From NCBI GenBank assembly GCA_049976425.1, contig JBMFIG010000014.1, positions 1-39,842 of the forward strand: a DNA stretch of 39,842 bases, in the 5' to 3' direction. Origin of the DNA: Thermoproteus sp. Lineage in GTDB: Archaea; Thermoproteota; Thermoprotei; Thermoproteales; Thermoproteaceae. The position numbers and the translations under genes are program-made. Below are positions 286-24,352 of this stretch, in pieces; position 1 is the stretch's first letter, and each line of letters begins with the position of its first letter. A model generated the notes under the pieces. It was not told the DNA's origin. It saw only the letters and a program-made list of their open reading frames with translations, and did not search any database.

Positions 286-732
286 TCAACTTTCTACTAT
301 GGCTCTGGGCTTTACGGCGTAGCCCCTCCTCAGCGTCAACTCCCTTACGCTGTATAGAAGCCGGCCGACTGCGACGGGCTTTCCCCCCTCGTCGACTACG
401 AAGACCTCGGCGTTGGGCCTTAACTCGCGCGAATGCGACTTGACGAACTTGGCGGGGACGCTACGTCCTTGCGAGACGAACTTGGCAGTCTCCCCGTCGA
501 CGACGACGTACGGGCCCTTCATGTAGGGGGCCGCATCAGCGAGGGGGAGCAGATAGCCGTCGTTGTTCCTGAAGGCGAATATCGGCTTGCCTTCGTAATA
601 TATATATTTTATTCTTTTAGATTTATTGTATTTTATTTCCAGTTTATTTTTATCAATATCTATATTTCTATACCCGTATATATATGTCAAGAGGCCGTAA
701 GCTTGTTCTTCCGGCGTCATGCTTTTAACCAT
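286..732 (-). CDS. PUA-domain RNA-binding protein resembling the C2+PUA C-terminus of archaeosine TGT
   Basis: PUA signature VVVDGETAKFVSQGRSVPAKFV...EVFVVDEGGKPVAVGR, preceded by an IKYIYYEGKPIFAFRNNDGYLLP C2-like segment. Confidence 0.8.
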   Translation of the reverse strand: MVKSMTPEEQAYGLLTYIYGYRNIDIDKNKLEIKYNKSKRIKYIYYEGKPIFAFRNNDGYLLPLADAAPYMKGPYVVVDGETAKFVSQGRSVPAKFVKSHSRELRPNAEVFVVDEGGKPVAVGRLLYSVRELTLRRGYAVKPRAIVES

Positions 733-749
733 GTATCGGATCTGTATTA

Positions 750-1235
750 ATGCTGTATTGCGATATCTGCGGCGCCCCGATAGAGGGGCAACCCTATATA
801 ATAAAACTGGACAACGCGGTCCTCCACGTCTGTAGGCGCTGTGCGGCGTCGTACGGCGCCGTCTCAGCCTCGGCGGCCGCGGAGCCGCAGAGGCGCGCGG
901 CCCCGCCTCCTCCGCCCAGGAGGGCGCCGGCTCCTAAGAGGGCGGCCGATAGGTACGAGGTCGTCGAGGAGTACGCCGAGGTTATAAAGAGGGCGCGGGA
1001 GTCCATGGGGCTCAGCAGGGAAGCGCTGGCGTCTTATATAGGCGTCAAGGAGAGCGTGTTGAGGCGCGTCGAGAGCGGCCAGCTGGTGCCCGACGTCCAG
1101 TTGGCCAGGAAGCTGGAGAAGGCTCTCGGGATCAAGCTGTTGGTGCCGGCCCAGCAGGGCGAAGCCGCAACGGGCGCCCCTGCCAGGAGGGAGCTCACTC
1201 TAGGCGACGTGGCTGAGGTAAGGGATGAGGAATAG
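750..1235 (+). CDS. mbf1: Archaeal multiprotein bridging factor 1 (Zn ribbon + HTH)
   Basis: N-terminal CDICG...VCRRC, HTH IKRARESMGLSREALA...VESGQLVP, C-terminal LTLGD. Confidence 0.92.
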   Translation: MLYCDICGAPIEGQPYIIKLDNAVLHVCRRCAASYGAVSASAAAEPQRRAAPPPPPRRAPAPKRAADRYEVVEEYAEVIKRARESMGLSREALASYIGVKESVLRRVESGQLVPDVQLARKLEKALGIKLLVPAQQGEAATGAPARRELTLGDVAEVRDEE

Positions 1236-2427
1236 GGCCCTTCTGGCGTATGTAGGCCCCAAGGATAGGAGGCTCGGCAGGAGGCTTGCGGAGTTCGAGG
1301 CGTTGGCCGAGGTGGCCGGCTACGAGGTGGCCGGCGTTGTGACGCAGTTCGGCGAGAGGGATTCCCGTTTTTATCTAGGCAGGGGGAAGCTCGACGAGGT
1401 GGCCGGCATGGATTTCGACGTGTTCGTGGCGTACCACGAGCTCACCCCTCTCCAGACGTATAATCTGAGGAGGAGGCTGGGCGTCGAGGTGATGGACAGG
1501 GTGCTCTTGATCCTCAAGATATTCGAGCGGAGGGCCGGCAGCATCGAGTCTAAGTTGCAGATAGAGCTGGCGGCGTTGAGATACCGACTTCCTCTAGTCA
1601 AGGAGTATCTCAGGAGAGCCAAGATGGGCGAGCAGATAGGCTATATGGGCGCCGGCGAGTATGCCGTCGACGCCTACTATAGGCATATGGTGAGCAGAAT
1701 CTCCTACATAAAGAGGAGGCTCGACAAGATGAGGGAGGATAGGGCTAGGCTGATGAGGAGGCGTAGGGACTTCGGCGTGCCCGAGGTCGTGTTGACTGGG
1801 TACACCAGCGTGGGGAAGACCACGCTCTTCAACCGATTGACCGCGGAGCACAAATACGTCGACGGCAGGCCCTTCGCCACGCTGGACACGTACTCGCGCC
1901 GTATAAGCCTGTGGGGGAAGGAGATCGTGCTGACGGATACCATCGGCTTCATAGAGGATCTGCCGCCTGTCTTGATAGAGTCGTTCTACTCCACTCTCCA
2001 GGAGGTCGCCGACGCGGATCTGGTCCTCCTGCTGGCCGACGCGTCGGACGACGAAGAGGAGTTCGCGAGGGAGCTCCAGACGTCTATCGACGTGTTGTCG
2101 ACCATCGGCGTACACAAGGAGCGGGTTCTCCCCGTCTTGAGCAAAGTAGACGCCGTGGGCCTCCCGGAGCTAGTCAGGAAGGCCGCGATCGTCAGGAGGC
2201 ATTTCGCCTTCTTCGCGCCCGTCTCGGCCTTGACGGGCTTCGGCGTCGACACGCTCAAGCTCTTGCTCTTCTGGAAGACGCCGGGCTACGCGATATACGA
2301 GGCGAGGCCTCCCGTCGGGGGGCTCGTGCTGGACGGCAAGTCGTATCTGCCGGTCAAAATAAGCGAGGTTAGGCGTTTCGAGAGCTCGTCTCTTAATTTA
2401 TATACCGAGCTGAGGAGAGTTCTGTGA
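1225..2427 (+). CDS. hflX: GTPase HflX
   Basis: DRVLLILKIF..RA, KLQIELA, G1 GYTSVGKTT, FATLD, DTIGFI, FYSTL. Confidence 0.95.
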   Translation: MRNRALLAYVGPKDRRLGRRLAEFEALAEVAGYEVAGVVTQFGERDSRFYLGRGKLDEVAGMDFDVFVAYHELTPLQTYNLRRRLGVEVMDRVLLILKIFERRAGSIESKLQIELAALRYRLPLVKEYLRRAKMGEQIGYMGAGEYAVDAYYRHMVSRISYIKRRLDKMREDRARLMRRRRDFGVPEVVLTGYTSVGKTTLFNRLTAEHKYVDGRPFATLDTYSRRISLWGKEIVLTDTIGFIEDLPPVLIESFYSTLQEVADADLVLLLADASDDEEEFARELQTSIDVLSTIGVHKERVLPVLSKVDAVGLPELVRKAAIVRRHFAFFAPVSALTGFGVDTLKLLLFWKTPGYAIYEARPPVGGLVLDGKSYLPVKISEVRRFESSSLNLYTELRRVL

Positions 2428-2960
2428 GCGAGGAGAGGCTAAACGCCTACCTCATCATGGTGGAGCGTAGCGTCTCCTTCGAGTTCAACAGCCCCGAATA
2501 CGGCAAGCTCGCCCGAAAGATGGTGGAGATGCTTTATTCCAGGAAGGAGCAGCTCTCGGACGACCGGATAGCTATCTTGATGAACATATCGACCGCCGAG
2601 GCCAGGAGGATACTACAGTTCCTCTCTAAGACGAACATGATAGGGGTCGTCAAGACGACGACTCCGGACTACCGCGTCGAGTACACGTGGTATGTTGACG
2701 ACGTGGTGATAACGAACGCCATAAAGAAGAGGATAGAGCTCGTCTCCGGGAAGCTGGCCCTTTTGGTGCGGGCCCTGGCCGAGGGGACCTACTACGTCTG
2801 CCCGAACTGCCACAGGCGCTACTCGCTCGACGAGGAGCTGGCCTACAACGGCATATGCCCTATATGTAAGGTCCAGCTAATTTATATAAATAATATTGAT
2901 GAAATAAATAGAGTAACTAAAATTCTCGAAAAACTAGAGAGATATGCGGGTAGTATTTAA
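2424..2960 (+). CDS. tfe: Transcription factor E (TFE alpha)
   Basis: N-terminal winged helix (LSDDRIA...ARRIL...YTWY) and Zn ribbon YVCPNC...CPIC. Confidence 0.85.
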   Translation: MSEERLNAYLIMVERSVSFEFNSPEYGKLARKMVEMLYSRKEQLSDDRIAILMNISTAEARRILQFLSKTNMIGVVKTTTPDYRVEYTWYVDDVVITNAIKKRIELVSGKLALLVRALAEGTYYVCPNCHRRYSLDEELAYNGICPICKVQLIYINNIDEINRVTKILEKLERYAGSI

Positions 2961-3645
2961 TATAACCAAGCCGTTTACAAGAGAGATCTTCGTCACGGGC
3001 TTCCACGGCGTAGGGATAGTCGGCCACATAGCGGTTAAGCACCTATCGAGGAACTGCGATGTCGTGGGCTACGTGCGCTACAAGAAGATGCCGCCTGTAA
3101 TCGCCTACGAGGGCGACCGGCTGGCGCTCCAGTCGGAGATATTCTCCTGCGGCAGAGTGGCCGGCGTCGTCAACAACTACGGCCTCGTCGACGAGGCAAT
3201 GTACGACTTCGTCGAGGCGCTCTCCGACTGGGTCGTCAGAAGCGGGTTCAAACTCGCAGTGCTCTTCGGCGGGCTGGACGGCAGATTTAGGCGGGAGCCC
3301 GGCGATCTTTTGAGGGTCGCCTATACGTCGTCCTACATAAAGGCTGGCTATCCTCTCGAGGGCAAGCGGCTGGAGCAAGGCCTGCAGATAGTCGGCCCTC
3401 TAGGGCTTCTCCTGTCCTATTTCGAGATGAGGGGCTTCCCCGCCTTGGTCATCCTGCCCTATGCGGACAAGCCCGCGGATCCCCAGGCGGCCAGCATCGC
3501 CCTCGACCACTTCGGCAAGCTCTTCGACATAAGGATCGACACGGCGGATCTGAGGCAACTAGCCGAGGAGCTGGAGAGAGAGTACGCCGAGGTTAGACGT
3601 CAACTTGAGGAGACTAGGAAGGAGGAGTCGCGGTATTATATATAG
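2944..3645 (+). CDS. PAC2-family proteasome assembly chaperone homolog
   Basis: GFHGVGIVGHIA, FGGLD, IVGPLGLLL, DPQAA; C-terminal YYI resembles an HbYX motif. Confidence 0.85.
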   Translation: MRVVFNITKPFTREIFVTGFHGVGIVGHIAVKHLSRNCDVVGYVRYKKMPPVIAYEGDRLALQSEIFSCGRVAGVVNNYGLVDEAMYDFVEALSDWVVRSGFKLAVLFGGLDGRFRREPGDLLRVAYTSSYIKAGYPLEGKRLEQGLQIVGPLGLLLSYFEMRGFPALVILPYADKPADPQAASIALDHFGKLFDIRIDTADLRQLAEELEREYAEVRRQLEETRKEESRYYI

Positions 3646-5140
3646 CGTTTAAAATATTAATTATTTCATCAATATCATTAACATTAACTATATTTCTTCC
3701 ATTTATATAATAGTTGTAAGTAATTATAAATTTATATTTTTTCGAGATAAACGCAACGTCGTCGTACAAGGCCTCCGAGGCGCCCCAGGATTCGTGTTGG
3801 GAGAGGGGATAAACCTCGGCGACCTCCTCCGGAACTACCCCGAATATATCATCTATGAAATAGATGTGGACGTATTTCCTAAACTTGTCCAATATCTTAT
3901 TTAAATATATATACTCCCACGATTTATTGTACGGCCTGAAATCTACCTTCAACAACACGGCGACGGGCTTATCCGGGCGTTGGTAGTAATGTCTGATCCT
4001 CAACCTGTGCCTATACGGCTCAGGCCTCGAGGCGGACGTGTCACCGAAGAAGAGCAGGCCGCTCGGCTCCGGGTGCGTCACTGGGTCGTACTCCTCCACG
4101 AGCTTCAGGTACTTCCTCATAATCCTCAGCGCGTTGTAAAGCGATCTGTGGGCGCGCGCCTTCTCCTCGAGATATTCCCAAAGCGTCCCCTCGTAGATCC
4201 TCTGCTTGATCTCGAGGATCTCCTCCCTGAGCATGGCCAGGTTGTGCTCAGCTATGAGCTCCGTCCTCTCCATCTTCGGCATCTCTCTAATCTCCTTGAC
4301 GGGCTTATCGCAGAGCTTGGTGCTACAGGGCAGATAGTCCACTCGCACCTCGTCGAGCCTCACTGTCCTGTCCCTCAACATTATCCTGTCGTCTCTGGCG
4401 TACAACACATAGGACGCGCTGTCGAATAGGTCCACGCCTGCGGCGACCGCGAAGGGGAGTATCAACGGGTGGCCCGCGCCGAAGAGGTGCAGAGGCGCCT
4501 CCCTCCTTATGTTCAGCTTGACCCTCAGTACTATGTCTAAGATCTCGTCGAACCGGTACTCCTCCAGAAGCGTGGTGGGACTCCCCACGGCGTATATGTC
4601 GAAGGGCAATGCCGACATGCGCCTGGCGGATCTCGCGAGCAGATCTCCGTAGATCCCGCCTTGTATGGGCCCCACGAGCAACATCCCGCCCAGCTCGCCG
4701 CGCATCTCCGCGGCCCTCAGAGCTCTTCTCAAGGTCTCCTCTACCTTTATCGAGGCCGAAAAGTACGACTCCTCCGAGTCCATCGGGAGGTCCAACATCA
4801 CGCCGATATCGCTCCCTATCTCTGACTGATACCTAAGTATCTCGTCGGGCTCTATGTCTATGACGCCGTACCTCATCAACTGGTAGGCGCCCGAGTCAGT
4901 CATCACTATGCCGCTCCACCCGAGGAACTTCCTCACATCGATAGGCTCTTTAAAAATACTGTATATAAAGTATGAATTAGTTATTATATTTTTAAAATAT
5001 TTATTAATTATACTTAATTTAAGCTCTTGTTTCTTAGGATCAACTACTGGAAATATAGCTGGGGTCTCCAGCACGCCGGATTTGGTGTAGAGCCTCCCAA
5101 CCCTCCCCAGGAGATCCTTCGCCTCTATCTCAAAACTCAT
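3614..5140 (-). CDS. tgtA: Archaeosine tRNA-guanine transglycosylase (catalytic form without PUA)
   Basis: GRVGRL...ETPAIFPV, MTDSGAYQ, GPIQGG, HLFGAGHP, GVDLFDSASY, EHNL. Confidence 0.93.
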   Translation of the reverse strand: MSFEIEAKDLLGRVGRLYTKSGVLETPAIFPVVDPKKQELKLSIINKYFKNIITNSYFIYSIFKEPIDVRKFLGWSGIVMTDSGAYQLMRYGVIDIEPDEILRYQSEIGSDIGVMLDLPMDSEESYFSASIKVEETLRRALRAAEMRGELGGMLLVGPIQGGIYGDLLARSARRMSALPFDIYAVGSPTTLLEEYRFDEILDIVLRVKLNIRREAPLHLFGAGHPLILPFAVAAGVDLFDSASYVLYARDDRIMLRDRTVRLDEVRVDYLPCSTKLCDKPVKEIREMPKMERTELIAEHNLAMLREEILEIKQRIYEGTLWEYLEEKARAHRSLYNALRIMRKYLKLVEEYDPVTHPEPSGLLFFGDTSASRPEPYRHRLRIRHYYQRPDKPVAVLLKVDFRPYNKSWEYIYLNKILDKFRKYVHIYFIDDIFGVVPEEVAEVYPLSQHESWGASEALYDDVAFISKKYKFIITYNYYINGRNIVNVNDIDEIINILNAIYNTATPPS

Positions 5141-5565
5141 TCACCGCGTTGTCTCTTGACAAACTCCTCATAAATCTGCCTAACCCTCTCGGCGAGCGGC
5201 CCCGATCCCTCTATACCTATCTCGCTCACTCTGACCTTATCGCTGATCAACACTATGTTGGACTCCTCGACGTATTTCACCATTCCGGGGAAGAACTTCT
5301 CTGCATATTTGGCAAATGCCCGCAAATCTATTTCTCTTTCAATAGAATTTATATATATTATATATCTAGACATTAATAGTGATTTTGTGTATTTATTTCC
5401 AGATTTTGTTATAACATTTATGAGAATTATATTTAGCTGGCTATCAACTGCGTGTAAGACGCCCCTATATTCCTCGCCGTTGTGGAGACCTACCACCACC
5501 TCCTTCCCCAGCAGATTGTTTATCTCTGCAACGAACCTCTTGTTAGCCTCGGCAAGCACCGACAT
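5137..5565 (-). CDS. Sm-like protein SmAP3 (Lsm + C-terminal domain)
   Basis: Sm1 motif LGKEVVV...YRGVLHAVDSQLNIIL plus a ~60 aa C-terminal extension (VSEIGIEGSGPLAERV). Confidence 0.88.
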   Translation of the reverse strand: MSVLAEANKRFVAEINNLLGKEVVVGLHNGEEYRGVLHAVDSQLNIILINVITKSGNKYTKSLLMSRYIIYINSIEREIDLRAFAKYAEKFFPGMVKYVEESNIVLISDKVRVSEIGIEGSGPLAERVRQIYEEFVKRQRGE

Positions 5566-5727
5566 ATGGAGGCCAATATATTTAGTTTTAAAGCTTTTAT
5601 TCTTATTGATACTTTATATTTTATTGAAATATACTATATAAATAAATTAAATTAACTATATTTTTAATAAATAGTTACCAGAGAAGAAGAGATTAAAACT
5701 TTATATTTTCAGCGATTTCGAGACGCC

Positions 5728-6060
5728 ATGTTGCTGAAAGAAACGGTTAGGGATATAGGGAAGCTGGAAGGCCCGTTGAGCAAGATCTGGCTTGTGGGCG
5801 ATGCAGAGGCCGAATTGGAAATTCCTCTAGATATTTTAAATATAAATTTAAGTAAAAATAATACTTTAATAATAAATATTGATAAAAGTAAAGAACAAGA
5901 TTATAAAACTAAATACGATATCTATATGTGGGGTATTCTATATAATAAAAACAATGATACTACCTATATATCTATTGGCGGTCTAATATTTAAAATAAAG
6001 TTAAATTTGCCATATAATATAGGTGATAAAGTATATATTGGTATCAAGATTAGTTCATAA
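5728..6060 (+). CDS. rpo8: RNA polymerase subunit Rpo8 (RpoG)
   Basis: 110 aa OB-like protein with YIMWGILY and ISIGGL motifs; context next to SmAP3/tgtA. Confidence 0.8.
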   Translation: MLLKETVRDIGKLEGPLSKIWLVGDAEAELEIPLDILNINLSKNNTLIINIDKSKEQDYKTKYDIYMWGILYNKNNDTTYISIGGLIFKIKLNLPYNIGDKVYIGIKISS

Positions 6061-6125
6061 CAACTCTCACGGTCTACTCCTCCCCTATCTATATTAGGCT
6101 TATCATTCCCCCCGGTCGTAACCTC

Positions 6126-6611
6126 GTGATCTGTCCCTACTGCAGATCGCCTAGGATCGTCGTATCGAACGGGGAATATGTGTGCGCTGAATGCGGTAGC
6201 GTTGTGGGGCCCGTCCTCTACGTGCCGCGCCAGAACGTCCAGACCCCCTATGTCATAAGGAAGATCTCTCTCAAGTTCTTGTTGTATAGATTAAATAAAG
6301 AAACAATAATATATTCTAATAAAATAAAATATAAAGAAAAAATAAAACAATATATAGAATTATTAGTTAAAGATCTAGAGGCGCCTATCTATGTCTTAGA
6401 CAGCTCTATCAAGATCTTGGAATCTATAGATAAGAGAAAGATCCAAGGCAAGAACCCGAGAGTTATCGCAGCAACGATATTTTACCTAGTCAGCAATAGG
6501 TATGGTCTTAGTTACGATAAGGAAAATATAGCTAAAAGACTAAATATAAGTAAATTAAGTATTAGGGATACTGCAGTTTATCTAAGAAAGATATGCAAGG
6601 AATTGCGCTGA
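6126..6611 (+). CDS. tfb3: Truncated TFIIB paralog (TFB3-like): Zn ribbon + single cyclin repeat
   Basis: CPYC...GEYVCAECGSVVG ribbon, QGKNPRVIAATIFYL cyclin motif, only 161 aa, located between rpo8 and thermosome. Confidence 0.75.
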   Translation: MICPYCRSPRIVVSNGEYVCAECGSVVGPVLYVPRQNVQTPYVIRKISLKFLLYRLNKETIIYSNKIKYKEKIKQYIELLVKDLEAPIYVLDSSIKILESIDKRKIQGKNPRVIAATIFYLVSNRYGLSYDKENIAKRLNISKLSIRDTAVYLRKICKELR

Positions 6612-7624
6612 TCGGGTTGGTCAGACTGATAGAGCTGGGCTATATAGATGAGAACGACAAGATAGCTAGATATAAAGATGATATAATTAATATAATATCA
6701 AGAATATATTCAAGAAATATAGATAAAACTATTTATTTAAGATATAAACTTTTTTATAAACTAACTAAAGATCGTTCAGCGGCGCTTTACTATCTCACGA
6801 AGTCGCTCAATATAGATAATCTACATAATTTATTAATTAATAAAAATATTGAAGATATTATATTAATTCCTGGAAAATATATATATATAACTACTAAATT
6901 TGGTAAACAAAGAACAGATATATACGCCACAGGCGACCTAGTCGCTAGGTTCCTCTCACTGGCGAGGGCAAAGGGCTATAGGCTTCTCCAGTCCAACCCG
7001 TCCTTTAAGTACGGCCTAGCGCTCGGCCCGTTGCGGCTCAGGATCTCCGTGGACCTTCCTCCTATAGTCTCGGCGCCGCATGTATATATTAGGGTACATA
7101 GGGGCGTTAAAACTCTCGACGATTTGGTCCTAGACGGATTTTTAAATAGGGATCATATTGTGACGATAAGGAGGGAGGTTTTAGCGAATCGCAGAGATCT
7201 CGTAGTCGCGGGGCCTCCAGGTAGTGGGAAAACGACGTTGTTGCAAGCAATAGATCTAGAGCTGCCTCATTGGCTACAGAGGGTATACATAGACGAGGCC
7301 GATGAGTTTATCGATTCGCCTATCCTTAATCAAATAAAGATAAATTCTTTAAATAAATTAAAGGAAATATTTACTTCTATGAATAGAAATATAGATTTAT
7401 TTATAATAGGAGAGCTTCAATATCCAGAACACTTCGAGGCCTATAGATCTGCGCGTAGTATAGGCCTACAGAGCTTCGGCACAATGCACGCAACTGATCT
7501 GGGAAAGGCGAAGAAGAGATTGGCTGAGGCTAATATAGATCTAGAAAATATAGTTATAATACAACTTAAAAAGAAATATGAAAATAAAATTATTAGATAT
7601 ATAGATGAAATATATGTTGGATGA
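6593..7624 (+). CDS. Type II/IV secretion / pilus-type ATPase (VirB11/TadA-like)
   Basis: IEDIIL, LRLRIS...YIRV, Walker A GPPGSGKTT, Asp box IDEADE, Walker B FIIGE, His box TMHA. Confidence 0.85.
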   Translation: MQGIALIGLVRLIELGYIDENDKIARYKDDIINIISRIYSRNIDKTIYLRYKLFYKLTKDRSAALYYLTKSLNIDNLHNLLINKNIEDIILIPGKYIYITTKFGKQRTDIYATGDLVARFLSLARAKGYRLLQSNPSFKYGLALGPLRLRISVDLPPIVSAPHVYIRVHRGVKTLDDLVLDGFLNRDHIVTIRREVLANRRDLVVAGPPGSGKTTLLQAIDLELPHWLQRVYIDEADEFIDSPILNQIKINSLNKLKEIFTSMNRNIDLFIIGELQYPEHFEAYRSARSIGLQSFGTMHATDLGKAKKRLAEANIDLENIVIIQLKKKYENKIIRYIDEIYVG

Positions 7625-8177
7625 GCTAATAAATATAAAAATAAAGAAAGTTCTCGAGAAGGAGTATAACAAGTTCGTCATTGTTAACGGCGCCATACTT
7701 TTACTAGGAATTCTATCGATTGGATTATCTTTCTTTTTATATAATTTAATTTATATATCTTTATTTCTTTTTTTAATTTATCTATTTATGCTATATTTAA
7801 GCTTAATTAGGTTAAGGAATAGAATAAGAGCTCTCGTGAATAGGGCCTTGTCGGTCAAGGAGTTTAAGGAGTATCTCAAGGACGTGCTCGGCGAATATAC
7901 GTATGGCCTAGACTACATAATGTTGTTGGAGGCTGAGGAGGCCCGCGTGTTGTCCGATATCGAGGACGCCGAGGAGAGGAGGATGCGGGCGTCCAGCGGC
8001 CTGTATAGGGCTATGCTGTCCGGGATTAAATCGAGGATCTTAGCATCCTCGCTCGCCGGAGTATCGGCCGGCGTCGTGATGTCGGCAGTAGTCCCTATTG
8101 ATCTGACGATCAAAATAGTGATGTTGGCGATGCTTATAGCGTCGATGTACTATGTATATAGAATTGTTTCTCTATAA
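7605..8177 (+). CDS. Hypothetical membrane protein (about 2+2 TM segments), possible platform partner of the ATPase
   Basis: Hydrophobic pairs near residues 24-68 and 147-190; overlaps the ATPase stop; the start may be 7614. Confidence 0.6.
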   Translation: MKYMLDELINIKIKKVLEKEYNKFVIVNGAILLLGILSIGLSFFLYNLIYISLFLFLIYLFMLYLSLIRLRNRIRALVNRALSVKEFKEYLKDVLGEYTYGLDYIMLLEAEEARVLSDIEDAEERRMRASSGLYRAMLSGIKSRILASSLAGVSAGVVMSAVVPIDLTIKIVMLAMLIASMYYVYRIVSL

Positions 8178-8195
8178 AAGGGGGTTGTTGGGGGC

Positions 8196-9869: not shown

Positions 9870-9887
9870 GAGTTTTACGAATTTCGC

Positions 9888-9974: not shown

Positions 9975-9994
9975 GCCTTGTTCGTGGCCCTTCA

Positions 9995-13981: not shown

Positions 13982-13983
13982 CT

Positions 13984-14133: not shown

Positions 14134-14159
14134 AGATAAATATGGACAGTATAATAAAT

Positions 14160-16517
14160 GTGGAGCTTGAATTCTGGCTCCTCGATATAACATACTCGAT
14201 CGCTGGAGGGGTGCCGGAGATTAGGATGTTCGGAATTACCAAGGACGGCGAGCGCGTCGTGGTGGCGGACAGAGGGTTTAGGCCTTATTTTTACGTAAAG
14301 GGCAATCCGTCCAATCTGAGACAAGCCTTGGCCAGGGTAGCCCCTATAGAGGCAGTGGAGGCAGTCGAGAGGAAGTATTTCGGCAAGCCCGTCAAGTTGT
14401 TTAAGGTCACGGCTCGGGTGCCCGAGGACGTGAGGCGGCTGAGAGAGGCCGCCCTAGCCCTAGACGGCGTCGAGGAGGTTCTAGAGGCCGATATTAGGTT
14501 CTATATGAGGTATATGGTCGACGTGGGCGTCACGCCGTCCACGTGGCATCTGGCCGACGTCTCCGAGGAAGGCACGCTGGGCGGTTTAAGGAAGTACTTG
14601 GCGCGGAGACCTCCCGTCCCGATCTTGGAAAAGACAGGCGTGTTGCCGGACCTCAGAATAGCGGCGTTCGACATAGAGGTATACAACGCGCGGGGCACCG
14701 CAGATCCTGCCAGAGATCCCGTGGTGATCATCTCTATTAAGGACTCCTCGGGCAAGGCCTTCGCGATAACTGCGGACGGGCGAGATGATAGGAAGGTGTT
14801 GCGGGAGTTCGTCGAATACGTGAGGGAATACGATCCCGACATCATACTCGGCTACAACTCTAACGGCTTCGACTGGCCCTACCTGGCCGAGAGGGCCAAA
14901 AGGCTCGGCGTAGCCCTGTCCGTGGATAGGCTGGGCGGGGCGCCCCAGCAGAGCGTGTACGGCCATTGGTCAGTCGTGGGGAGGGCCAACGTGGATCTCT
15001 ACAACGTCATAGACGAGATACAGGAGATCAAGGTCAAGACGTTGGATAGAGCCGCCGAGTACTTCGGCGTCATGAAACGCGACGAAAGGACTTTGATACC
15101 CGGCCACAGGATCTACGAATACTGGGACGATCCCTCGCGGAGGCCTATCTTGATCAAATACGCGATGGAGGACGCGGCCTCCACATACGGGCTGGGCGAG
15201 AAGCTACTGCCCTACCTGATCCAGCTCTCCTCTGTGTCCGGCGTGCCGTTAGACCAAGTGGCCGCGGCCTCCGTGGGGGCGAGGGTCGAGTGGCTGTTGA
15301 TGCGGTACGCGTACCGCATGGGCGAAGTCGCGCCTAACAGAGAGGAGAGGCCCTATGAGACCTACAAAGGCGCCATAGTGTTGGAGCCGCGGCCAGGCAT
15401 CTACCAAGACGTCGCCGTGTTGGACTTCACGAGTATGTACCCCAGCATAATGATGAAGTACAACCTATCGCCTGACACCTATCTGGAACCCGGCGAGCCG
15501 GATCCGCCCGAGGGCGTCTACAGAGCGCCTGAGGTCGGGCATAGGTTCAGGAAGTCCCCGACTGGCTTCATACCGCAAGTCCTAGCCTCTCTAGTAAAGC
15601 TGAGGAAAGAGGTGAGGAGCGCCATGTCCGGCCTCGATCCTAACAGCGTAGAGTATAAACTGCTGGACGAGAGGCAAAGAGCCTTGAAGATTATGGCCAA
15701 CGCCATGTACGGCTATATGGGCTGGCTCGGGGCTAGATGGTATAAAAGGGAAGTCGCGGAGTCCGTCACCGCCTTCGCGAGAAATATATTACTAGATGTT
15801 ATAAATTTCGCTAAAAATATAGGAATAAATGTAATATATGGAGATACTGATAGTTTATTTGTTAAATATTCCAAGGATATAGATAGAATAATAAATTATG
15901 TAAATGATAAATTTAATATAGAGATTAAATTAGAGAAAATATATAAGAAACTTCTATTTACGGAATCTAAGAAACGTTACGCCGGTCTCCTGGACGACGG
16001 CAGAATCGATATCGTGGGATTCGAAGTTGTGAGAGGTGACTGGTGCGAGCTGGCGAAGGAGGTGCAGTTGAAGGTCATAGAATATGCGCTTAAGTCTCAG
16101 AACTTGTCTGAGGCTAAGGATAAGATTATTAGCTATGTTAAATCTATTATCAATAATATTAAAACATATAATATAGATCTTGATGATTTAATTATATGGA
16201 AAACTTTAGATAAAGAATTAGATGAATATAAAGTAACTCCTCCACATGTATATGCAGCTAAATTATTGGAGAAGCACGGATATAAAATACATAAAGGTAT
16301 GAGTATAGGATATGTAATAGTTAAAGGTAGTGATAAATTGAGTTCTAGGGCTAAGCCCTATATCTTGGTAGAAGATATAAAGGAGGTAGACATAGACTAC
16401 TATGTAGAGAAGCAGATAGTCCCCGCGGCGTTGAGGATAGGCGAAGTGATAGGCGTAAGGGAAGGCGACTTGGTAGGGAAAGGCGGCTCCAGAAGTCTGC
16501 TCGACTTCCTCGGCTGA
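14160..16517 (+). CDS. polB: Family B DNA polymerase (PolB3-like) with 3'-5' exonuclease
   Basis: FDIEV, YNSNGFDWPYL, DFTSMYPS, KIMANAMYGY, YGDTDS, KKRY; GTG 14160 preferred to ATG 14142 (both in frame). Confidence 0.96.
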   Translation: MELEFWLLDITYSIAGGVPEIRMFGITKDGERVVVADRGFRPYFYVKGNPSNLRQALARVAPIEAVEAVERKYFGKPVKLFKVTARVPEDVRRLREAALALDGVEEVLEADIRFYMRYMVDVGVTPSTWHLADVSEEGTLGGLRKYLARRPPVPILEKTGVLPDLRIAAFDIEVYNARGTADPARDPVVIISIKDSSGKAFAITADGRDDRKVLREFVEYVREYDPDIILGYNSNGFDWPYLAERAKRLGVALSVDRLGGAPQQSVYGHWSVVGRANVDLYNVIDEIQEIKVKTLDRAAEYFGVMKRDERTLIPGHRIYEYWDDPSRRPILIKYAMEDAASTYGLGEKLLPYLIQLSSVSGVPLDQVAAASVGARVEWLLMRYAYRMGEVAPNREERPYETYKGAIVLEPRPGIYQDVAVLDFTSMYPSIMMKYNLSPDTYLEPGEPDPPEGVYRAPEVGHRFRKSPTGFIPQVLASLVKLRKEVRSAMSGLDPNSVEYKLLDERQRALKIMANAMYGYMGWLGARWYKREVAESVTAFARNILLDVINFAKNIGINVIYGDTDSLFVKYSKDIDRIINYVNDKFNIEIKLEKIYKKLLFTESKKRYAGLLDDGRIDIVGFEVVRGDWCELAKEVQLKVIEYALKSQNLSEAKDKIISYVKSIINNIKTYNIDLDDLIIWKTLDKELDEYKVTPPHVYAAKLLEKHGYKIHKGMSIGYVIVKGSDKLSSRAKPYILVEDIKEVDIDYYVEKQIVPAALRIGEVIGVREGDLVGKGGSRSLLDFLG

Positions 16518-16588
16518 CGTTGGGCCTCGCCGATCGGCGAGCGTTAGGAGATGAGTAAATACTTAAAGGTGTTACTAAGGTGTGGGCC

Positions 16589-17803
16589 ATGGGAGCCTTA
16601 ACCATAGTCTCAAAGTACATGATTGTCGCCCAGATAGAAGTGAACGGAGTGGTTGATAAATCCGACATAATAGGCGCGTTGTTCTCGCAGACGGAGGGCT
16701 TGCTCGGCAAGGATATGGATCTTAGAGAGCTACAGATGATGGGGCGTATCGGCAGAATCGAGATAGACATATTGGAGAAGGACGGGCGCACAAAGGCCCG
16801 GGTCAACATACCGTCGAACTTAGACCGCTACGAGACCGCCTTGATAGCCGCGCTCATCGAGAGCGTGGAGAGGGTCGGGCCTTATCCGGCCAGCGTCAAG
16901 ATTCTGGAGATAAGGGATTTGAGGGAGGAGAAGAGGAACAGGATAGTCGAGAGGGCCAAGGAGCTTATCAAGATGATGGAGGAGGAGGTGCTTCCCGACA
17001 CCAAGGAGATACTCGAGAAGCTGAAGGAGGATGTGGCCAAGGCCGAGGTGATAGAGTACGGCCCGGAGAGACTACCGGCAGGGCCCGACATCGATAAGTC
17101 CGACAGCATAATCATAGTTGAGGGCCGCGCCGACGTCGTGAATCTGGTCAAACACGGCTACCGCAACGTAATAGCCATAGAGGGTATAAGCCAGGGCATA
17201 CCTCAGACCATAATAGATATAAGCAAGCGCAAGAACGTGACGGCGTTCGTCGACGGGGATAAGGGCGGCGAGCTCGTGTTGAGGGATCTATTGAAGGTTG
17301 CACACGTCGACTACATAGCCAGAGCGCCTCCAGGCAAGGAGGTTGAGCAGTTGACGGCTAAGGAGATCGCGAGGGCTCTGAGGAATAAAATGACGGTCGA
17401 GGAGTATCTGGCCCAACAACAGATAAAGTCACAAGAGCAGGCCCAGGCGCAACAAACCCAGCCGCAACAACCGCCGCAACCTCAGCAGGCCGGGCGTCCG
17501 TTAGAGGTGCCGGACTTCGTAAGGACTAAGATAGACGAGATGCTCGGCACGCTTGAGGCGGAGATCTACGACGAGAAGTGGAGCCCTGTGAAGAGGTTAA
17601 CTGTTAGGGAACTCCCCGACTTCTTGTCGTCGTCCGAGGGCAACGTATACGCCATACTGATGGACGGGATAGCCACCCAGCGTATAGTGGATCTAGCCGC
17701 CAAGAGGGGCGTCAAGTACATAATAGCGGCGAGGGTCGGGCCCGTGACCAAGGCGCCTGAGGATATGTCGATAATATCGTTCGACGATTTAAAGACATCC
17801 TAG
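16589..17803 (+). CDS. dnaG: Archaeal DnaG (TOPRIM; primase / exosome-associated)
   Basis: DIIGALFSQTEGLLG, VEGRADV, DGDKGG, DGIATQR; Q/P-rich linker; start 16580 or 16589. Confidence 0.94.
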   Translation: MGALTIVSKYMIVAQIEVNGVVDKSDIIGALFSQTEGLLGKDMDLRELQMMGRIGRIEIDILEKDGRTKARVNIPSNLDRYETALIAALIESVERVGPYPASVKILEIRDLREEKRNRIVERAKELIKMMEEEVLPDTKEILEKLKEDVAKAEVIEYGPERLPAGPDIDKSDSIIIVEGRADVVNLVKHGYRNVIAIEGISQGIPQTIIDISKRKNVTAFVDGDKGGELVLRDLLKVAHVDYIARAPPGKEVEQLTAKEIARALRNKMTVEEYLAQQQIKSQEQAQAQQTQPQQPPQPQQAGRPLEVPDFVRTKIDEMLGTLEAEIYDEKWSPVKRLTVRELPDFLSSSEGNVYAILMDGIATQRIVDLAAKRGVKYIIAARVGPVTKAPEDMSIISFDDLKTS

Positions 17804-17954: not shown

Positions 17955-18833
17955 GTGAACGAGCTAGTCGGGGCAGGCGATGTTGTCCACAGAGCTTTGA
18001 AATACGCCATGGACATAATCCATCCCGACATGCCTGTCTTGGAGCTCTGCGAGAAGATAGAGCAGTTCATAATCGCGCAGGGAGCCAAACCTGCGTTTCC
18101 GGTCAACATAAGCATTAACGAGGTAGCGGCGCATTACACTGCGACGAGGAACGATGGAAGTAAAATCCCCAAGAACTCTGTGGTTAAGATAGATGTAGGC
18201 GCCCATAAGGACGGCTACATTGTCGACGCCGCAGTCACAGTCGCGTTGGGTACTAACGCATACGACGGCTTGATAAGGGCCTCCTACAACGCGCTCAAGA
18301 AGGCCTCAGAGGCGTTGAAGCCCGGCGTCAGGGCTTGGCAGATCGGCGAAGCCATCGAGGCGGCCATAAAATCGTTCGGCTACAAGCCTATCTACAACTT
18401 GACCGGCCATCGAATAGAGCGCTACGTCCTCCACGCAGGGGACGTGATACCTAACTACGGCGATAGGTCCGCGTCGCAGAACATCAAGACGGGCGATGTA
18501 TATGCCGTGGAGCCCTTCGCCACCAACGGCAAGGGATATGTCGTAGATAGAAAAAATATTACTATATTTAGACTTTTAAGAAATAAATCGAAAAAATATC
18601 AGAAATATATAGATATAATATATCAATTTTCTAATAATTTGCCGTTTACGCCTAGATGGTTTCCTCAGATCCCAGACGCCTTCTATAAAGACGCCTTGTC
18701 GGAGGGGGTTCTCTACGGCTACGAGGTGTTGGTCGAGGAGGCCAACGGCTTCGTGGCCCAGTTCGAGGACACGTTCTTGATCGAGGACGATGGGGCACGG
18801 CCTCTGGCGAGGACCCTTGAGCTAGTCACTTAA
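17955..18833 (+). CDS. map: Methionine aminopeptidase type II
   Basis: AFPVNISINEVAAHY, KIDVGAHKDGYIVD, LTGH, AVEPF, AQFEDT. Confidence 0.96.
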   Translation: MNELVGAGDVVHRALKYAMDIIHPDMPVLELCEKIEQFIIAQGAKPAFPVNISINEVAAHYTATRNDGSKIPKNSVVKIDVGAHKDGYIVDAAVTVALGTNAYDGLIRASYNALKKASEALKPGVRAWQIGEAIEAAIKSFGYKPIYNLTGHRIERYVLHAGDVIPNYGDRSASQNIKTGDVYAVEPFATNGKGYVVDRKNITIFRLLRNKSKKYQKYIDIIYQFSNNLPFTPRWFPQIPDAFYKDALSEGVLYGYEVLVEEANGFVAQFEDTFLIEDDGARPLARTLELVT

Positions 18834-19281: not shown

Positions 19282-20781
19282 TTATTGAGGCACGCCGGCT
19301 CCGCTTATATAGTTTTCGAATATCCTCAAGATCTGCTCGGCCGTAGGCCTGGCCTCAGGCCTTGGGGACAACATGGACATTATTAAGCCCGAGAGCCAAG
19401 ACGGGATCTCCGGCCTGTATCTGTCGGGAGGGGGTATCTCGTATCCGTTAATCACGAACGACTGCGGGTTTATCCCGGTCAAGCTCTCGTACATAACGCA
19501 ACCGAGTGAATATATGTCGGAGGCTTTAGATGCCGTCTGACTGTAGAGGGTCTCAGGCGCCGCGTAAGCTGGTGAAAGATACGACGCGGCCACCGCCTTG
19601 CCCACAGCCAGTTTGGCAATGCCTAGATCCCCTATCTTGACCACGGCCTTTTCCCTATCCTTAAACATTATATTTTCAGGTTTTATATCTAGATGAACTA
19701 AATTATTCTTATGAATATCATTTAATCCCTTCAATATCTGTATAAATATTCTAAAGAATTCATCGAGGGATAGAGTCCTCTTCTCGATCAGATACTCCCG
19801 TAGGGATCCGCCCTCCATGTACTCGAGTATCATGTATGGGGGATTCCTCATGTAGTCGCTCAAAGATCTGTACTCGGTAGATGGTATCGACACCTCGTAC
19901 GCCTTCACCACGTAGTCGGACAACACCTCCAGATACCTGTTCATCTCCTGCCCGAATATCTTTATAACGTCCCAGCTCGACGCGAGGGGAGCGCCTCTAT
20001 CGTCGACATACCTAAGCACCTTAGCGGCGAACTTCTGCCTACCCGCCGAGACCTTTAAGACGTAGCTAAAGCCGCCTACTCCCACTACGTCCTCGACGTA
20101 GTATTTTCCGCCGAGCCAGGAATTGAGCCACCCCACCGGCGGCGATAGAGACCTATAAGCGATCCTCTTGCTAAATACAAAATATGCTACTAAAAATAGA
20201 AAAATATTAATAAAAATAAAAAGGAAAGTATAATTTATCTTAAATATATAAATTAAGATAAAATAATTCAATAGATATACAAAAGAGGCAAGGGGACCGT
20301 ATATCTGTATCGGTAGGTCAAATATGGCGAAAATAAACCCCTGAAGGATAGGCAATGCAAACATATAGGGGCTCTGGAAAGCCAAGGACAATATAGCAGG
20401 TATGGCAATATCCTTAGTTTTATTAATTCTATAATATGAATATTCATATATTTCAAATAGTAAAATTATAAGAAATATTATAATAGAATCCAATACAATA
20501 TTAATTATATTATATTGTTCAATCAGAAATAAATTTGAATTGAAGAACATTAAACTCGCAATCACGATGTAAAGAGCCGCGCGCATCGCCATTACGTACC
20601 TACCTATAATAGCTCTTACCAACAATATCGATATAATTAATATATAAAATTCATCTTCAATAATATTGTTTATAAGGTACGTTTGAATAAATATTAATAT
20701 GATTAATATGGTGAATAGAGTAAAGAATCTGGCGAAAATTTTCCGCGCCTGATATGCGATTGCTATCGCCGAGAGGAGCAT
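19282..20781 (-). CDS. Multi-pass membrane Hanks-type Ser/Thr protein kinase
   Basis: ~200 aa hydrophobic N-terminus; GVGGFSYV, AAKV, EYMEGGSL, HLDIKPEN, GDLG, YAAPE, SDIYSLG. Confidence 0.92.
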   Translation of the reverse strand: MLLSAIAIAYQARKIFARFFTLFTILIILIFIQTYLINNIIEDEFYILIISILLVRAIIGRYVMAMRAALYIVIASLMFFNSNLFLIEQYNIINIVLDSIIIFLIILLFEIYEYSYYRINKTKDIAIPAILSLAFQSPYMFALPILQGFIFAIFDLPIQIYGPLASFVYLLNYFILIYIFKINYTFLFIFINIFLFLVAYFVFSKRIAYRSLSPPVGWLNSWLGGKYYVEDVVGVGGFSYVLKVSAGRQKFAAKVLRYVDDRGAPLASSWDVIKIFGQEMNRYLEVLSDYVVKAYEVSIPSTEYRSLSDYMRNPPYMILEYMEGGSLREYLIEKRTLSLDEFFRIFIQILKGLNDIHKNNLVHLDIKPENIMFKDREKAVVKIGDLGIAKLAVGKAVAASYLSPAYAAPETLYSQTASKASDIYSLGCVMYESLTGINPQSFVINGYEIPPPDRYRPEIPSWLSGLIMSMLSPRPEARPTAEQILRIFENYISGAGVPQ

Positions 20782-20862
20782 TTGAAGAACTCGAAGATCA
20801 AGCCTTTAAAGTATACGTATACTACACGTCTACATAAAAATACATGTCGCAAAGAGGTATTG

Positions 20863-22214: not shown

Positions 22215-22282
22215 GGATTAAGGATAGCCGTTATTATTTACTTTTACAGTATGATTTTTCTACTGGAGAGGCGGCTGTAGAT

Positions 22283-23020: not shown

Positions 23021-23401
23021 CTTGTCGCCTCTAAACGGCGACGGGAAGAGATCCCTGAGATTCGCCGTAATCACCTTTCTCTTGTCGGCCGTCGCCATGA
23101 TCACAAGGGCGTTGGGGTTGAACTCGGCTATGACCTGTCTACACGCCCCGCAGGGGGCCACCGGCTCGTCCGAGTCGACGACCACCGCTACGGCCACTAT
23201 ATCCCTATCCCCCTCCGACACGGCCTTAAATACGGCCACCCTCTCGGCGCATACGGTCAGCCCGTAGCTGGCGTTCTCCACGTTGACGCCAGTGTAGATC
23301 CTGCCGCTTTTGGTCAACACGGCGGCGCCTACGCGGAACTTCGAATACGGCGCATATGCGTTTTTTAGGGCTTCCCGGGCCTTTTCCACGAGCTCCTCCA
23401 T
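23009..23401 (-). CDS. cdd: Cytidine deaminase
   Basis: AYAPYSKFRVGAA, NVENASYG..CAER, PCGACRQ. Confidence 0.96.
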   Translation of the reverse strand: MEELVEKAREALKNAYAPYSKFRVGAAVLTKSGRIYTGVNVENASYGLTVCAERVAVFKAVSEGDRDIVAVAVVVDSDEPVAPCGACRQVIAEFNPNALVIMATADKRKVITANLRDLFPSPFRGDKLKS

Positions 23402-23428
23402 AAAAATATAAGGGGTAAAAGAGAGTTA

Positions 23429-24352
23429 GTGGCCGCAGAGGTAAGAGAGGCGATTGTTAAGACGGGGGCAGAGGTGGAAGACGGAGTATTGGCCACTATG
23501 CCTAGGAGTTTGAAATACACAGCGGCTCAGATAAGATCTATAATAGAATCATATAAAAGCTCAGATATATCTACTATTATTAATAATTTATCAAATATAA
23601 GAAATATTGAAGATGTGATACTATATATTACAATATTATCATATCTAGTAGGTAATAACATCAAGGGCGATGGGATGTTGGAAGCGTACTCCCGAGAGTT
23701 CGAGAAAATGGACGGCATATCAGCATCCAAGCTGAGACACCTTCTCACCAATATATTGGGCGAGGAGGCTCCGATAAATATACATGTAAATAAAATTTTA
23801 AAGATTATAGAATTTCTAAAGCATAAAAAGGGAACATATCTCTGGATATTAAAAGAAAAACGATTAGATAGATTTGAGAAAGATGTGAGAGAATTTGTCT
23901 TCGAAAACAACGGTGGTTATTCTATCGATAGAGGAATTAAGTTATTTATAAGAATTTTTATAGATAAAAATACTATTCCTCTTGCATATAAAATAGCTTA
24001 TAATAAAAATGAAGTTAGAAAATATAGAATACATGGGGATTTCTACACAACCCTTGTTGCCATGCGTAGCGGCTCCTTCGAGGACGTCGATTCGCCGACC
24101 GCCTCCAAGATAAAGCAGAGAGTGGCGCGGGCCCTGATTTGCAGAAGCCGGAAGGAGCGTTGCGATCCGTTACGGATACGCCTCAAGTCCGTGCGGGGTC
24201 TGGTGAGGACGATCGCCTATCTGAGCGGCGATCCCATAGCGTTCGAGAGAGGCGCGTACCACATAGGCAAGAACTACTGCGCTAGGCTTAGATGCGAGGA
24301 ATGCCCTATAAGGAACGTCTGCAAGAAATATATATTTATAGAAGTCAAGTAA
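23429..24352 (+). CDS. Hypothetical protein with a C-terminal endonuclease III-like Fe-S motif
   Basis: C-terminus GAYHIGKNYCARLRCEECPIRNVC (C-x4-C-x2-C-x5-C). Confidence 0.65.
   Translation: MAAEVREAIVKTGAEVEDGVLATMPRSLKYTAAQIRSIIESYKSSDISTIINNLSNIRNIEDVILYITILSYLVGNNIKGDGMLEAYSREFEKMDGISASKLRHLLTNILGEEAPINIHVNKILKIIEFLKHKKGTYLWILKEKRLDRFEKDVREFVFENNGGYSIDRGIKLFIRIFIDKNTIPLAYKIAYNKNEVRKYRIHGDFYTTLVAMRSGSFEDVDSPTASKIKQRVARALICRSRKERCDPLRIRLKSVRGLVRTIAYLSGDPIAFERGAYHIGKNYCARLRCEECPIRNVCKKYIFIEVK

Follow-up and report, generated by a model that had tools for sequence, protein, structure and literature searches.

AT-rich patches in the window

Here we analyzed a 39,842-nt stretch of DNA from Thermoproteus sp. 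(hereafter the window; assembly GCA_049976425.1, contig JBMFIG010000014.1), in which short, sharply bounded AT-rich patches lie within and between GC-rich conserved genes. The window is contig C14 of the source genome G000, an assembly of 1.84 Mb in 96 contigs with a GC content of ~60%. A two-state hidden Markov model (HMM) separating G/C from A/T, with emissions of 62% and 25% GC, called 21 patches of 32–676 nt with GC fractions of 0.13–0.32 (Table 1). All 17 AT-rich tracts listed in a preliminary description of this sequence were recovered to within tens of bases; two of them (6285–6370 and 6665–6925) fall in one HMM call, and five short patches were found in addition. The 500-nt GC profile dips to 30–43% at 3.5–8, 15.5–16.5, 20–21, and 23.5–24 kb, with no dip past 24.5 kb in the window. 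As first described, the patches cease after ~24.35 kb within the window, with none called between 24362 and 39842.

The genes hosting patches in the window encode a PUA-domain protein, an archaeosine tRNA-guanine transglycosylase (ArcTGT), TFE, PAC2, Lsm, an RpoG-like open reading frame (ORF), family-B DNA polymerase (PolB), methionine aminopeptidase, and a protein kinase. The window genes for the thermosome, proteasome, FKBP, aCPSF1, DnaG, and HflX have no patch. The earlier statement that the tracts lie in reading frames stands for 10 of the 21 patches, which are located entirely within a single open frame of at least 158 aa, but 7 are in no single open frame; these run across gene junctions or stop codons or are intergenic. 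The earlier placement of the PolB motif YGDTDS inside a patch was correct: it is encoded in frame by AT-rich codons within 15782–15979. In the raw PolB sequence, GC-rich codons give way to AT-rich codons within a few bases, and the frame is kept.

Related genomes are referred to by group, with g1 the genus of G000, g3 and g2 its sister genera, and f2 and f3 further families. Within g1, G007 is a closed, single-contig genome of 1.94 Mb that was fetched whole; it is collinear with almost all of the window, at 96.3% identity. G003 and G002 are also single-contig g1 genomes, with an overall identity to the window of only 73–76%.

Table 1 AT-rich patches called in the window, with their gene context and the evidence for each.
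Feature	Position	Context	Evidence
AT patch, 16% GC	596–690	5' part of PUA-domain gene 286–732 (-)	HMM, Pfam; low GC also in G007 (0.12), G003 (0.16)
AT patch, 24% GC	2861–2965	3' end of TFE-alpha-like gene 2424–2960 (+) and start of PAC2 gene 2944–3645 (+)	GC 0.24 in G007, 0.15 in G003, 0.13 in G002
AT patch, 14% GC	3634–3751	3' end of ArcTGT gene 3614–5140 (-), converging on PAC2 gene	Minimum in 7/7 g1, 0/14 g3
AT patch, 26% GC	3843–3931	Inside ArcTGT, aa about 404–433	HMM, open frame, genus profile
AT patch, 17% GC	4949–5057	Inside ArcTGT, aa about 28–64	Core bin 4–13% GC in 7/7 g1, 22–48% in g3
AT patch, 17% GC	5324–5435	Inside Lsm/SmAP gene 5137–5565 (-)	HMM, open frame, Pfam, low GC in relatives
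AT patch, 13% GC	5575–5709	Between divergent genes starting at 5565 (-) and 5728 (+); no open frame; ordinary promoter position	HMM
AT patch, 20% GC	5813–6063	Most of RpoG-like ORF 5728–6060 (+)	Weak Pfam match, E 1.8e-4, below cut-off
Long AT stretch, 27% GC	6249–6924	Short TFB-like ORF 6126–6611 (+) and start of ATPase ORF 6593–7624 (+)	GC 0.39 in G003; unaligned in G002
AT patch, 21% GC	7302–7423	Inside ATPase ORF 6593–7624 (+)	HMM, open frame, low GC in relatives
AT patch, 21% GC	7531–7827	End of ATPase ORF 6593–7624 (+) and start of ORF 7605–8177 (+)	HMM, low GC in relatives
AT patch, 32% GC	8096–8179	3' end of ORF 7605–8177 (+), converging on thermosome gene 8196–9869 (-)	Unaligned in G003, G002
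AT patch, 19% GC	15782–15979	Inside PolB 14142–16517 (+); encodes YGDTDS	Minimum in 9/9 g1; mild dips in 18 g3; none in 2 g2
AT patch, 29% GC, core 5–15%	16077–16411	Inside PolB 14142–16517 (+)	HMM, genus profile
AT patch, 15% GC	18536–18640	Inside methionine aminopeptidase gene 17955–18833 (+)	HMM, open frame, Pfam, low GC in relatives
AT patch, 20% GC	19656–19763	Inside protein kinase gene 19282–20781 (-)	HMM, open frame, Pfam, low GC in relatives
Long AT stretch, 28% GC	20172–20845	N-terminal 200 codons of kinase gene 19282–20781 (-) and divergent MoaA gene start (20782, +)	HMM, Pfam, low GC in relatives
Short AT patch, 16% GC	22231–22262	Directly upstream of gene start 22283 (+)	HMM, position profile
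AT patch, 19% GC	23531–23664	Inside ORF 23429–24352 (+), no Pfam family	HMM, open frame, low GC in relatives
AT patch, 23% GC	23774–24034	Inside ORF 23429–24352 (+), second patch there	HMM, open frame, low GC in relatives
Short AT patch, 18% GC	24323–24361	Junction of gene ending at 24352 and gene starting at 24354; last in window	HMM

The TFB-like ORF at 6126–6611 is 161 aa long, with a zinc ribbon and one cyclin repeat, and the ORF that follows it (6593–7624) is a T2SSE/AAA-type ATPase. The two ORFs together (6126–7624) are mostly in the AT-rich state, and the region aligns poorly in G002.

Composition and boundaries of the patches

Low-GC segments of this kind are beyond chance in G000. Among 18,364 non-overlapping 100-nt windows with a mean of 60.1% GC, 106 fall below 24%, which is more than 7 binomial standard deviations under the mean, where a binomial model expects essentially none. 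At the mean patch edge, GC falls stepwise from 0.57 to about 0.25 across 10–20 nt with no gradient, although the profile was aligned on the HMM edges and this alignment overstates the sharpness somewhat. There is no GC clamp at the edges, as GC in the flanks is a little below that of the genome (0.56–0.58 vs 0.61).

The shift in composition affects all three codon positions, with GC1/2/3 of 0.29/0.22/0.24 in G000 patches against 0.60/0.44/0.81 outside. Codons for Asn, Ile, Lys, Tyr, and Phe are increased 1.6- to 3.5-fold in patches, and those for Ala, Gly, Pro, and Trp are decreased 3- to 4-fold. Both parts of the original observation, a shift at synonymous sites and a shift in amino acids toward I/N/K/Y/F, are therefore borne out, and the pressure acts on the DNA itself rather than on codons or protein. 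Third positions in patches are 0.39 A and 0.37 T, so there is no strand-coordinated bias. Compared with mononucleotide shuffles, a null that is not codon-aware, patches have 3- to 4-fold fewer homopolymer runs of at least 6 on both strands (A, 29 vs 101; T, 11 vs 49). An open frame running across 100 nt of 20% GC DNA is in itself strong evidence of coding.

Beyond their composition, the patches share no sequence. No 8-mer occurs in them at more than 2.3 times its second-order expectation, and there is no AA/TT periodicity of 10–11 bp, with the autocorrelation flat at lags 10–11 (283 and 314 patches); the only periodicities in the autocorrelation are those of codons and of TA repeats.

Distribution along the chromosome and relative to genes

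Patches are found throughout G000 and G007. G000 contains 450 of them, with a median length of 108 nt, totaling 57,399 nt or 3.1% of its bases. They occur on most contigs, of which C14 (the window), C13, C6, C1, and C5 are the richest. G007 contains 494 patches (3.8%), spread all round its 1.94-Mb chromosome. The proposal that the patches are confined to one chromosomal domain is thus contradicted by both genomes. The first 24 kb of the window do match the densest stretch of the G007 chromosome, with 20–22 patches (99th percentile), and a region near 1.72 Mb is about as dense (20–21 patches). Patches in G007 are clustered, with a dispersion index of 2–3 and 25 gaps longer than 15 kb against 10.8 expected. 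Patch spacing has no periodicity, a property that had been suggested for examination; an excess of short gaps together with a long tail indicates clustering instead.

An origin-like domain is likewise not supported. The only Cdc6_C match in G007 is at 1,420,096–1,420,380, about 30 kb past the end of the window, and patch density has no peak there. Patches are chromosome-wide, and the equally dense region lies about 300 kb off, on the other side of the Cdc6_C match. With 494 patches in G007 and one Cdc6_C match ~30 kb away, we rejected a replication origin or DNA unwinding element as the identity of the patches, in an analysis of the Cdc6_C match for which origin recognition boxes were not searched.

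Genome-wide, between 55% (gene calls) and 71% (all open frames of 120 aa or more) of patch bases are coding. Patches cover 9–13% of positions from -100 to -1 relative to gene starts, about 7% of positions just past stops, and about 1.5% of gene bodies. We used 375 G000 patches of at least 60 nt and open frames of at least 120 aa for the position statistics, and called a patch deep intragenic if neither end of its open frame was closer than 150 nt. Wholly intragenic patches number 161 of 375, and 103 of these are deep intragenic, with a median length of 112 nt; position along the host frame is uniform. About a quarter to two fifths of patches are deep inside genes.

On contigs C6 and C13, the patch hosts include genes for a V-ATPase subunit, ThrRS, PGK, malic enzyme, ribonucleotide reductase, a tRNA splicing endonuclease, and AGOG. 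There is no bias toward any gene class among the hosts on these contigs and in the window. The ribonucleotide reductase large subunit gene on C13 (11811–15566) contains an intein with a LAGLIDADG domain. G007 also contains a cluster of kilobase-sized stretches of 30–38% GC (G007:C1, 6717–19780), for example 8515–12982 at 30% GC. These are only moderately AT-rich, ordinary-looking islands, and form a class separate from the micro-patches.

Conservation within the genus

Patch positions are kept throughout g1. A DNA search with PolB returned full-length matches in all eight other g1 genomes, three of which are single-contig, and the two PolB patches keep their positions in 9/9 g1 genomes. In codon-aligned bins, the PolB patch cores have 5–15% GC in all nine, compared with 23–51% in 18 g3 genomes and 50–56% in two g2 genomes. 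The three ArcTGT minima are present in 7/7 g1 genomes and in none of 23 others (14 g3, one g2, and eight f2). One ArcTGT orthologue, that of G004 (C23, 22512–23912), has one in-frame TAG and no match to the first 39 residues; this copy may be either broken or misassembled.

Across the window as a whole, the patches are low in GC in 21/21 cases in G007, in 20/20 aligned cases in G003 (0.11–0.39), and in 16/16 aligned cases in G002 (0.11–0.35). Over the whole genome, 318 of the 375 G000 patches that are 60 nt or longer aligned to G007 and 57 did not; 301 of the aligned ones were also called there, and the remaining 17 are borderline, with a GC fraction of 0.30–0.47 in G007. No recent birth or death of a patch was found between G000 and G007; the largest difference is at C1:128557–128662 (0.29 vs 0.47).

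Outside the genus, low-GC segments of this depth are rare or absent. The share of windows whose GC is at least 0.35 under the genome median is 0.83% in G000 and 1.0% in G007, and in the samples surveyed from other groups it is 0–0.17% for g3 (240 kb from three genomes), 0.09–0.28% for g2 (87 kb), 0% for f2 (80 kb), and 0% for f3 (53.8 kb). The comparison of orthologues proposed earlier thus gave a divided answer, with positions kept throughout g1 and absent from the sister genera. The trait therefore arose on the stem of g1, and the positions of the patches were inherited from the ancestor of that genus.

The peptides encoded by the patches are orthologous to those of relatives. Against the g3 protein, the PolB patch peptides are identical at 107 of 178 residues (60%), compared with 422 of 603 (70%) outside the patches, and the alignment is gap-free. 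The DNA therefore changed in place, and the patches are not insertions. This agrees with the earlier rejection of gene transfer, as the patch peptides are orthologous and the same sites are affected across g1. Three candidate identities were rejected. For a horizontally acquired island or mosaic gene, the PolB peptides are collinear with the g3 orthologue and the composition is not drifting back. For an in-frame selfish insertion resembling the palindromic elements of Rickettsia, PolB has no extra residues and the patches share no sequence beyond composition. Assembly chimerism was ruled out by the presence of the patches in single-contig G007, G003, and G002 and in five other drafts.

The sister genus gives an indication of where patches formed. 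In g3, the bins corresponding to g1 patches are lower in GC than other bins in both genes compared (ArcTGT, 0.45 vs 0.52, p=0.003; PolB, 0.43 vs 0.56, p=0.0003). They are also less conserved in the g3 protein for ArcTGT (0.69 vs 0.85, p=0.001), and for PolB the difference was not significant (0.79 vs 0.845). Some boundaries have moved: the 5' edge of the first PolB patch is about 80 nt later in G002, where YGDTDS is in GC-normal codons, and 3 of 22 aligned G003 patches are missing from the window (0.41–0.50 GC at those sites). From these comparisons, the patches look seeded on permissive AT-lean segments and self-sustaining afterward.

Substitution patterns and a proposed fixation bias

Identity to G003 at codon positions 1/2/3 is 0.78/0.87/0.57 in patches and 0.85/0.91/0.52 outside. 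By this measure, patches behave as ordinary coding sequence under somewhat weaker protein constraint, and their DNA is not specially conserved. Against G003, synonymous sites are near saturation, yet GC is low in every lineage.

At closer range, we compared G000 with G007. An excess of A/T in G000 patches over G007 (1337 vs 1017) was rejected as ascertainment bias, since it is gone at sites called patch in both genomes, where the A/T-versus-G/C differences are symmetric (973 vs 966); patches are therefore at compositional equilibrium. Changes in patches are mostly transitions, 81% overall and 186 of 233 at four-fold sites (stated in the analysis as 89%). Four-fold sites have a GC content (GC4) of 0.232 and a divergence of 11.2% in patches (n=2,086), and a GC4 of 0.841 and a divergence of 10.5% outside (n=246,762). 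At these sites, G:C>A:T transitions per site are 0.19 in patches and 0.038 outside, and A:T>G:C transitions are 0.058 in patches and 0.200 outside, 3.5-fold lower in patches. The transition flux per four-fold site is 0.089 in patches and 0.064 outside, a 1.40-fold difference. The rate of A<->T transversions per A/T site is 0.0131 in patches and 0.0128 outside. As these changes are neutral with respect to composition and equal in both compartments, they suggest the same underlying mutation rate.

We then fitted a model in which mutation rates are shared and the fixation bias S is separate for each compartment. The fit gave S of -0.59 in patches (95% interval -1.26 to +0.04) and +2.28 outside (1.59–2.93), with a neutral GC of 0.35 (0.22–0.52). 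Opposite biases of equal size in the two compartments were disfavored (P=0.009). Equal mutation, different fixation, and equilibrium, as would characterize a compartment lacking GC-favoring fixation bias, were all found for the patches, conditional on the model. Non-patch intergenic DNA is 58.8% GC, and the GC-favoring force therefore acts on DNA as such rather than through codon selection.

Origin and maintenance of the patches

The g1 genomes hold two stable states of local composition, with ~450–500 segments of median length ~110 nt at 13–30% GC and the rest at ~60%. With confidence somewhat short of even, we favor an account in which the patches are segments exempt from a genome-wide GC-favoring fixation bias, and represent a largely non-adaptive, self-sustaining by-product. 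The substitution rates suggest that the whole genome, non-coding DNA included, is pushed toward G/C by a strong fixation bias (S about +2.3), which could stem from selection at the DNA level or from conversion or repair biased toward GC. Inside patches this push would be lacking, or would act weakly in reverse (S about -0.6, interval -1.3 to 0), and because of this the patches would drift to the AT-biased side at an unchanged underlying mutation rate. Comparison with the sister genus suggests seeding on AT-leaner, less constrained segments such as promoters, terminators, and peptide stretches rich in K/I/N/E. The AT-rich state would then sustain itself, with edges creeping by tens of bases. 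For the exemption, our leading guess is that at growth temperature such AT-rich DNA may be open or without its usual chromatin, and that open or unbound DNA would be beyond the reach of the GC-favoring process. Patches would then be mainly a by-product rather than purpose-built elements.

Several points weigh against this account. The seeding tests cover two genes and use bins that partly depend on one another. The first substitution spectrum carried ascertainment bias because patches are defined by composition, which was corrected at shared-patch and four-fold sites. In the model, composition is taken to be at equilibrium, four-fold sites to be neutral, and mutation rates to be the same in both compartments; it also treats sites as independent, which makes its intervals optimistic. 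The bootstrap P(S>=0) in patches is 0.037, and weak selection for A/T would fit at least as well as pure relaxation. The PolB cores, at 5–15% GC in nine species, lie below 0.23, the mean GC4 of patches, which may point to an active pull toward A/T or a context-dependent rate. Step-like edges are no obvious outcome of a diffuse physical process. The by-product account is also silent on why g3 has no patches, since like g1 it has similar GC, one reverse gyrase, NucS, and no histones. The histone fold was found in 0/9 g1 genomes (counting G000), 0/18 g3 genomes, and 2/2 g2 genomes; NucS/EndoMS is in both g1 and g3; DprA is sporadic (2/9 g1, 5/18 g3); and reverse gyrase has a single full-length copy in nearly all genomes. 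Neither the histone fold, NucS, DprA, nor reverse gyrase separates g1 from g3, in a search that did not extend to uracil glycosylases, EndoV, Alba, Cren7, or CC1.

Several of these points would be expected if patches were instead selected at the DNA level, kept AT-rich since ready opening or special binding of the DNA is of use to the cell. They might serve as torsional-stress sinks, as sites where reverse gyrase or a nucleoid protein loads, as chromatin gaps, or as dispersed starts of replication or recombination. Selection would account for positions strictly conserved in nine g1 species despite synonymous turnover, for the step-like edges, for cores under the average patch level in every species, for a fitted bias that leans to A/T, and for clustering along the chromosome. 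By an empirical formula, a 110-bp duplex at 20% GC melts about 16–22 °C below DNA of 60% GC, and its melting temperature is near or below the growth temperatures of such organisms, which also fits with selection for easy opening. Against selection, no shared motif and no helical periodicity were found; patch spacing is irregular and clustered, the preference for weakly constrained, AT-lean segments is what permissive drift predicts, and edges and a minority of patches vary between species. Binding sites for a chromosome-organizing protein, as put forward in the preliminary description, may be among such elements, but the shared motif or 10–11 bp phasing of A/T dinucleotides typical of nucleoid-protein sites was not seen. 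In addition, no candidate binding or repair gene found separates g1 from g3. Overall, we consider selected elements an unlikely explanation, favored by the very low cores shared by all species and by the negative estimate of S.

A locally raised mutation rate, either from thermal opening that speeds cytosine deamination or from blocked repair, was proposed in the preliminary description and could both make and keep patches. The predominance of transitions and growth from AT-lean seeds are in keeping with such a process, and easier opening of AT-rich DNA would give positive feedback. The rates are difficult to reconcile with it, however. Raised deamination alone predicts a 4.8-fold transition flux in patches where 1.40-fold is observed, and it leaves the lower rate of A:T>G:C change in patches unexplained. 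Between patches and the rest, moreover, A<->T changes are equally frequent and divergence at four-fold sites is nearly equal. We therefore give this mechanism little credence.

Similarly small is the likelihood that intragenic patches are internal transcription signals, whether downstream, internal, or antisense promoters, or terminators. Patches are enriched upstream of starts and after stops, several lie at gene junctions (2861–2965, 3634–3751, 5575–5709, 8096–8179, 22231–22262, and 24323–24361), and patch DNA reaches the median score of a real promoter about once per 6 nt. Junction patches may have real promoters inside them. However, the normal promoter is compact: across 682 upstream regions of G000 it consists of A at -31/-30, a T/A-rich TATA box from -27 to -20, C at -1, and a leaderless start, in otherwise 50% GC DNA, so that an AT tract of 100–300 nt is not needed. 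When the archaeal core promoter (BRE/TATA) was considered for 156 intragenic patches, matrix matches numbered 3557 in sense and 3408 in antisense, the same as composition-matched shuffles (3469 +/- 77), and this candidate was rejected. The 103 deep intragenic patches are also poorly explained by such signals, g3 has the same operons without patches, and no Rfam family at gathering score and no tRNA was found in the window.

A foreign or artifactual source, in the form of a low-GC donor mosaic, an in-frame selfish element, or a chimeric metagenome assembly, would suit the sharp edges, the composition alien to the genome, and the 96-contig draft state of G000, but is so improbable that it can be set aside, given the same patches in three single-contig g1 genomes and five other drafts, peptides that align gap-free to sister-genus orthologues at 60% identity, no drift back to genome GC despite near-saturated synonymous divergence, and cores at 5–15% GC that are below any archaeal genome average we know of.

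Returning to the exemption from GC-favoring fixation, it is conceivable, though in our estimation rather unlikely, that g1 gained or lost a DNA-maintenance component, leaving ~500 heritable open tracts of 100–300 nt that are melted or unprotected and escape GC-favoring repair or conversion. Such tracts may then serve the cell by buffering torsion or by giving reverse gyrase, recombination, or replication a point of entry, in which case the patches would be a sequence-encoded map of the physical state of the chromosome.

Relation to known systems and significance

How high prokaryotic GC is kept up against AT-biased mutation is a long-standing question, with selection and biased gene conversion as the candidates. 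The g1 genomes seem to provide an internal control, as two compartments exist within single genes with the same expression, replication timing, and apparently mutation rate; between them, A/T<->G/C fixation differs roughly four-fold in each direction. If the patches are indeed open tracts of this kind, they would be a built-in neutral control, and the high GC of these hyperthermophiles would be actively maintained against AT-biased mutation. If they are open or unbound at 85–90 °C, they would also have a bearing on duplex stability in hyperthermophiles.

We found no account of conserved in-frame AT micro-islands in prokaryotic genes in a literature search that most subscription journals lay beyond, which is in line with the earlier suggestion that the pattern is undescribed. 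The nearest concepts each differ in scale, location, origin, or dynamics. In bacteria, the xenogeneic silencers H-NS, Lsr2, MvaT, and Rok bind AT-rich targets that are mostly acquired genes. Like the patches, these targets are AT-rich in a GC-richer genome and contain spurious promoter-like sequence, and both are open to AT-preferring proteins, in the case of the patches as a prediction. Unlike them, the patches are vertically inherited core sequence, and no silencer of this type is known for genus g1, nor was one found. The A+T-rich islands of fission yeast, which are replication origins of 0.5–1 kb located between genes, are also present in hundreds, dispersed, and defined by composition rather than by a motif, but the patches occur at one per 4 kb and often inside genes. 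Fungal blocks of repeat-induced point mutation (RIP) and deaminase mutation clusters are sharply bounded AT-rich tracts made mainly by transitions. The patches resemble both in their boundaries and in the predominance of transitions, and differ in that they are not repeats, have no strand-coordinated bias, are at equilibrium rather than the result of a one-off event, and have rates that argue against raised deamination. Rickettsia palindromic elements are 100–150 nt long and inserted in frame in genes. The patches are similarly a DNA-level feature, in frame inside conserved genes, but are neither insertions nor repeats, and encode orthologous residues.

Stress-induced duplex destabilization (SIDD) sites of bacteria are, as presented in two papers (PMC1468432, PMC2211533), short, strongly AT-rich, and easily opened, as the patches are predicted to be, and are found mainly between genes. 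Many patches are likewise at promoters and terminators, but at least 161 of 375 are wholly inside open frames, 103 of them deep. A further related concept is regional GC-biased gene conversion (gBGC) or fixation bias, known from mammalian isochores and hotspots and hypothesized for bacteria by Lassalle et al. 2015 (PMC4450053). Its compartments, like the patches, differ by fixation rather than mutation, and synonymous, non-coding, and amino-acid-changing sites are all affected. It extends over kilobases to megabases, whereas the patches are ~100 nt long with step edges in single genes, and in g1 the exceptional state is the AT-rich one, with positions stable genus-wide. The accessible text of the T. 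tenax genome paper describes only three extended low-G+C regions (<47%) and no micro-patches (PMC3189178). For one species of the presumed genus, PMC4731332 names a small-RNA data set that has been published.

The patches also have practical consequences. PolB and other core proteins carry composition-driven replacements, which could mislead phylogeny and gene finders; a composition-trained gene caller missed the AT-rich RpoG-like ORF. In metagenome bins, patches could pass for transfers or chimeras.

Other features of the window

Two small single-gene inversions with breakpoints between genes were identified in the otherwise collinear 39 kb. The block containing the DnaG primase gene (16588–17796) is inverted relative to its neighbors in both G003 and G002, and the block at 13554–13977 is inverted in G003. 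In the GC-rich part of the window, two long open frames on opposite strands, 34870–37194 (-) and 36389–37636 (+), overlap by ~800 nt.

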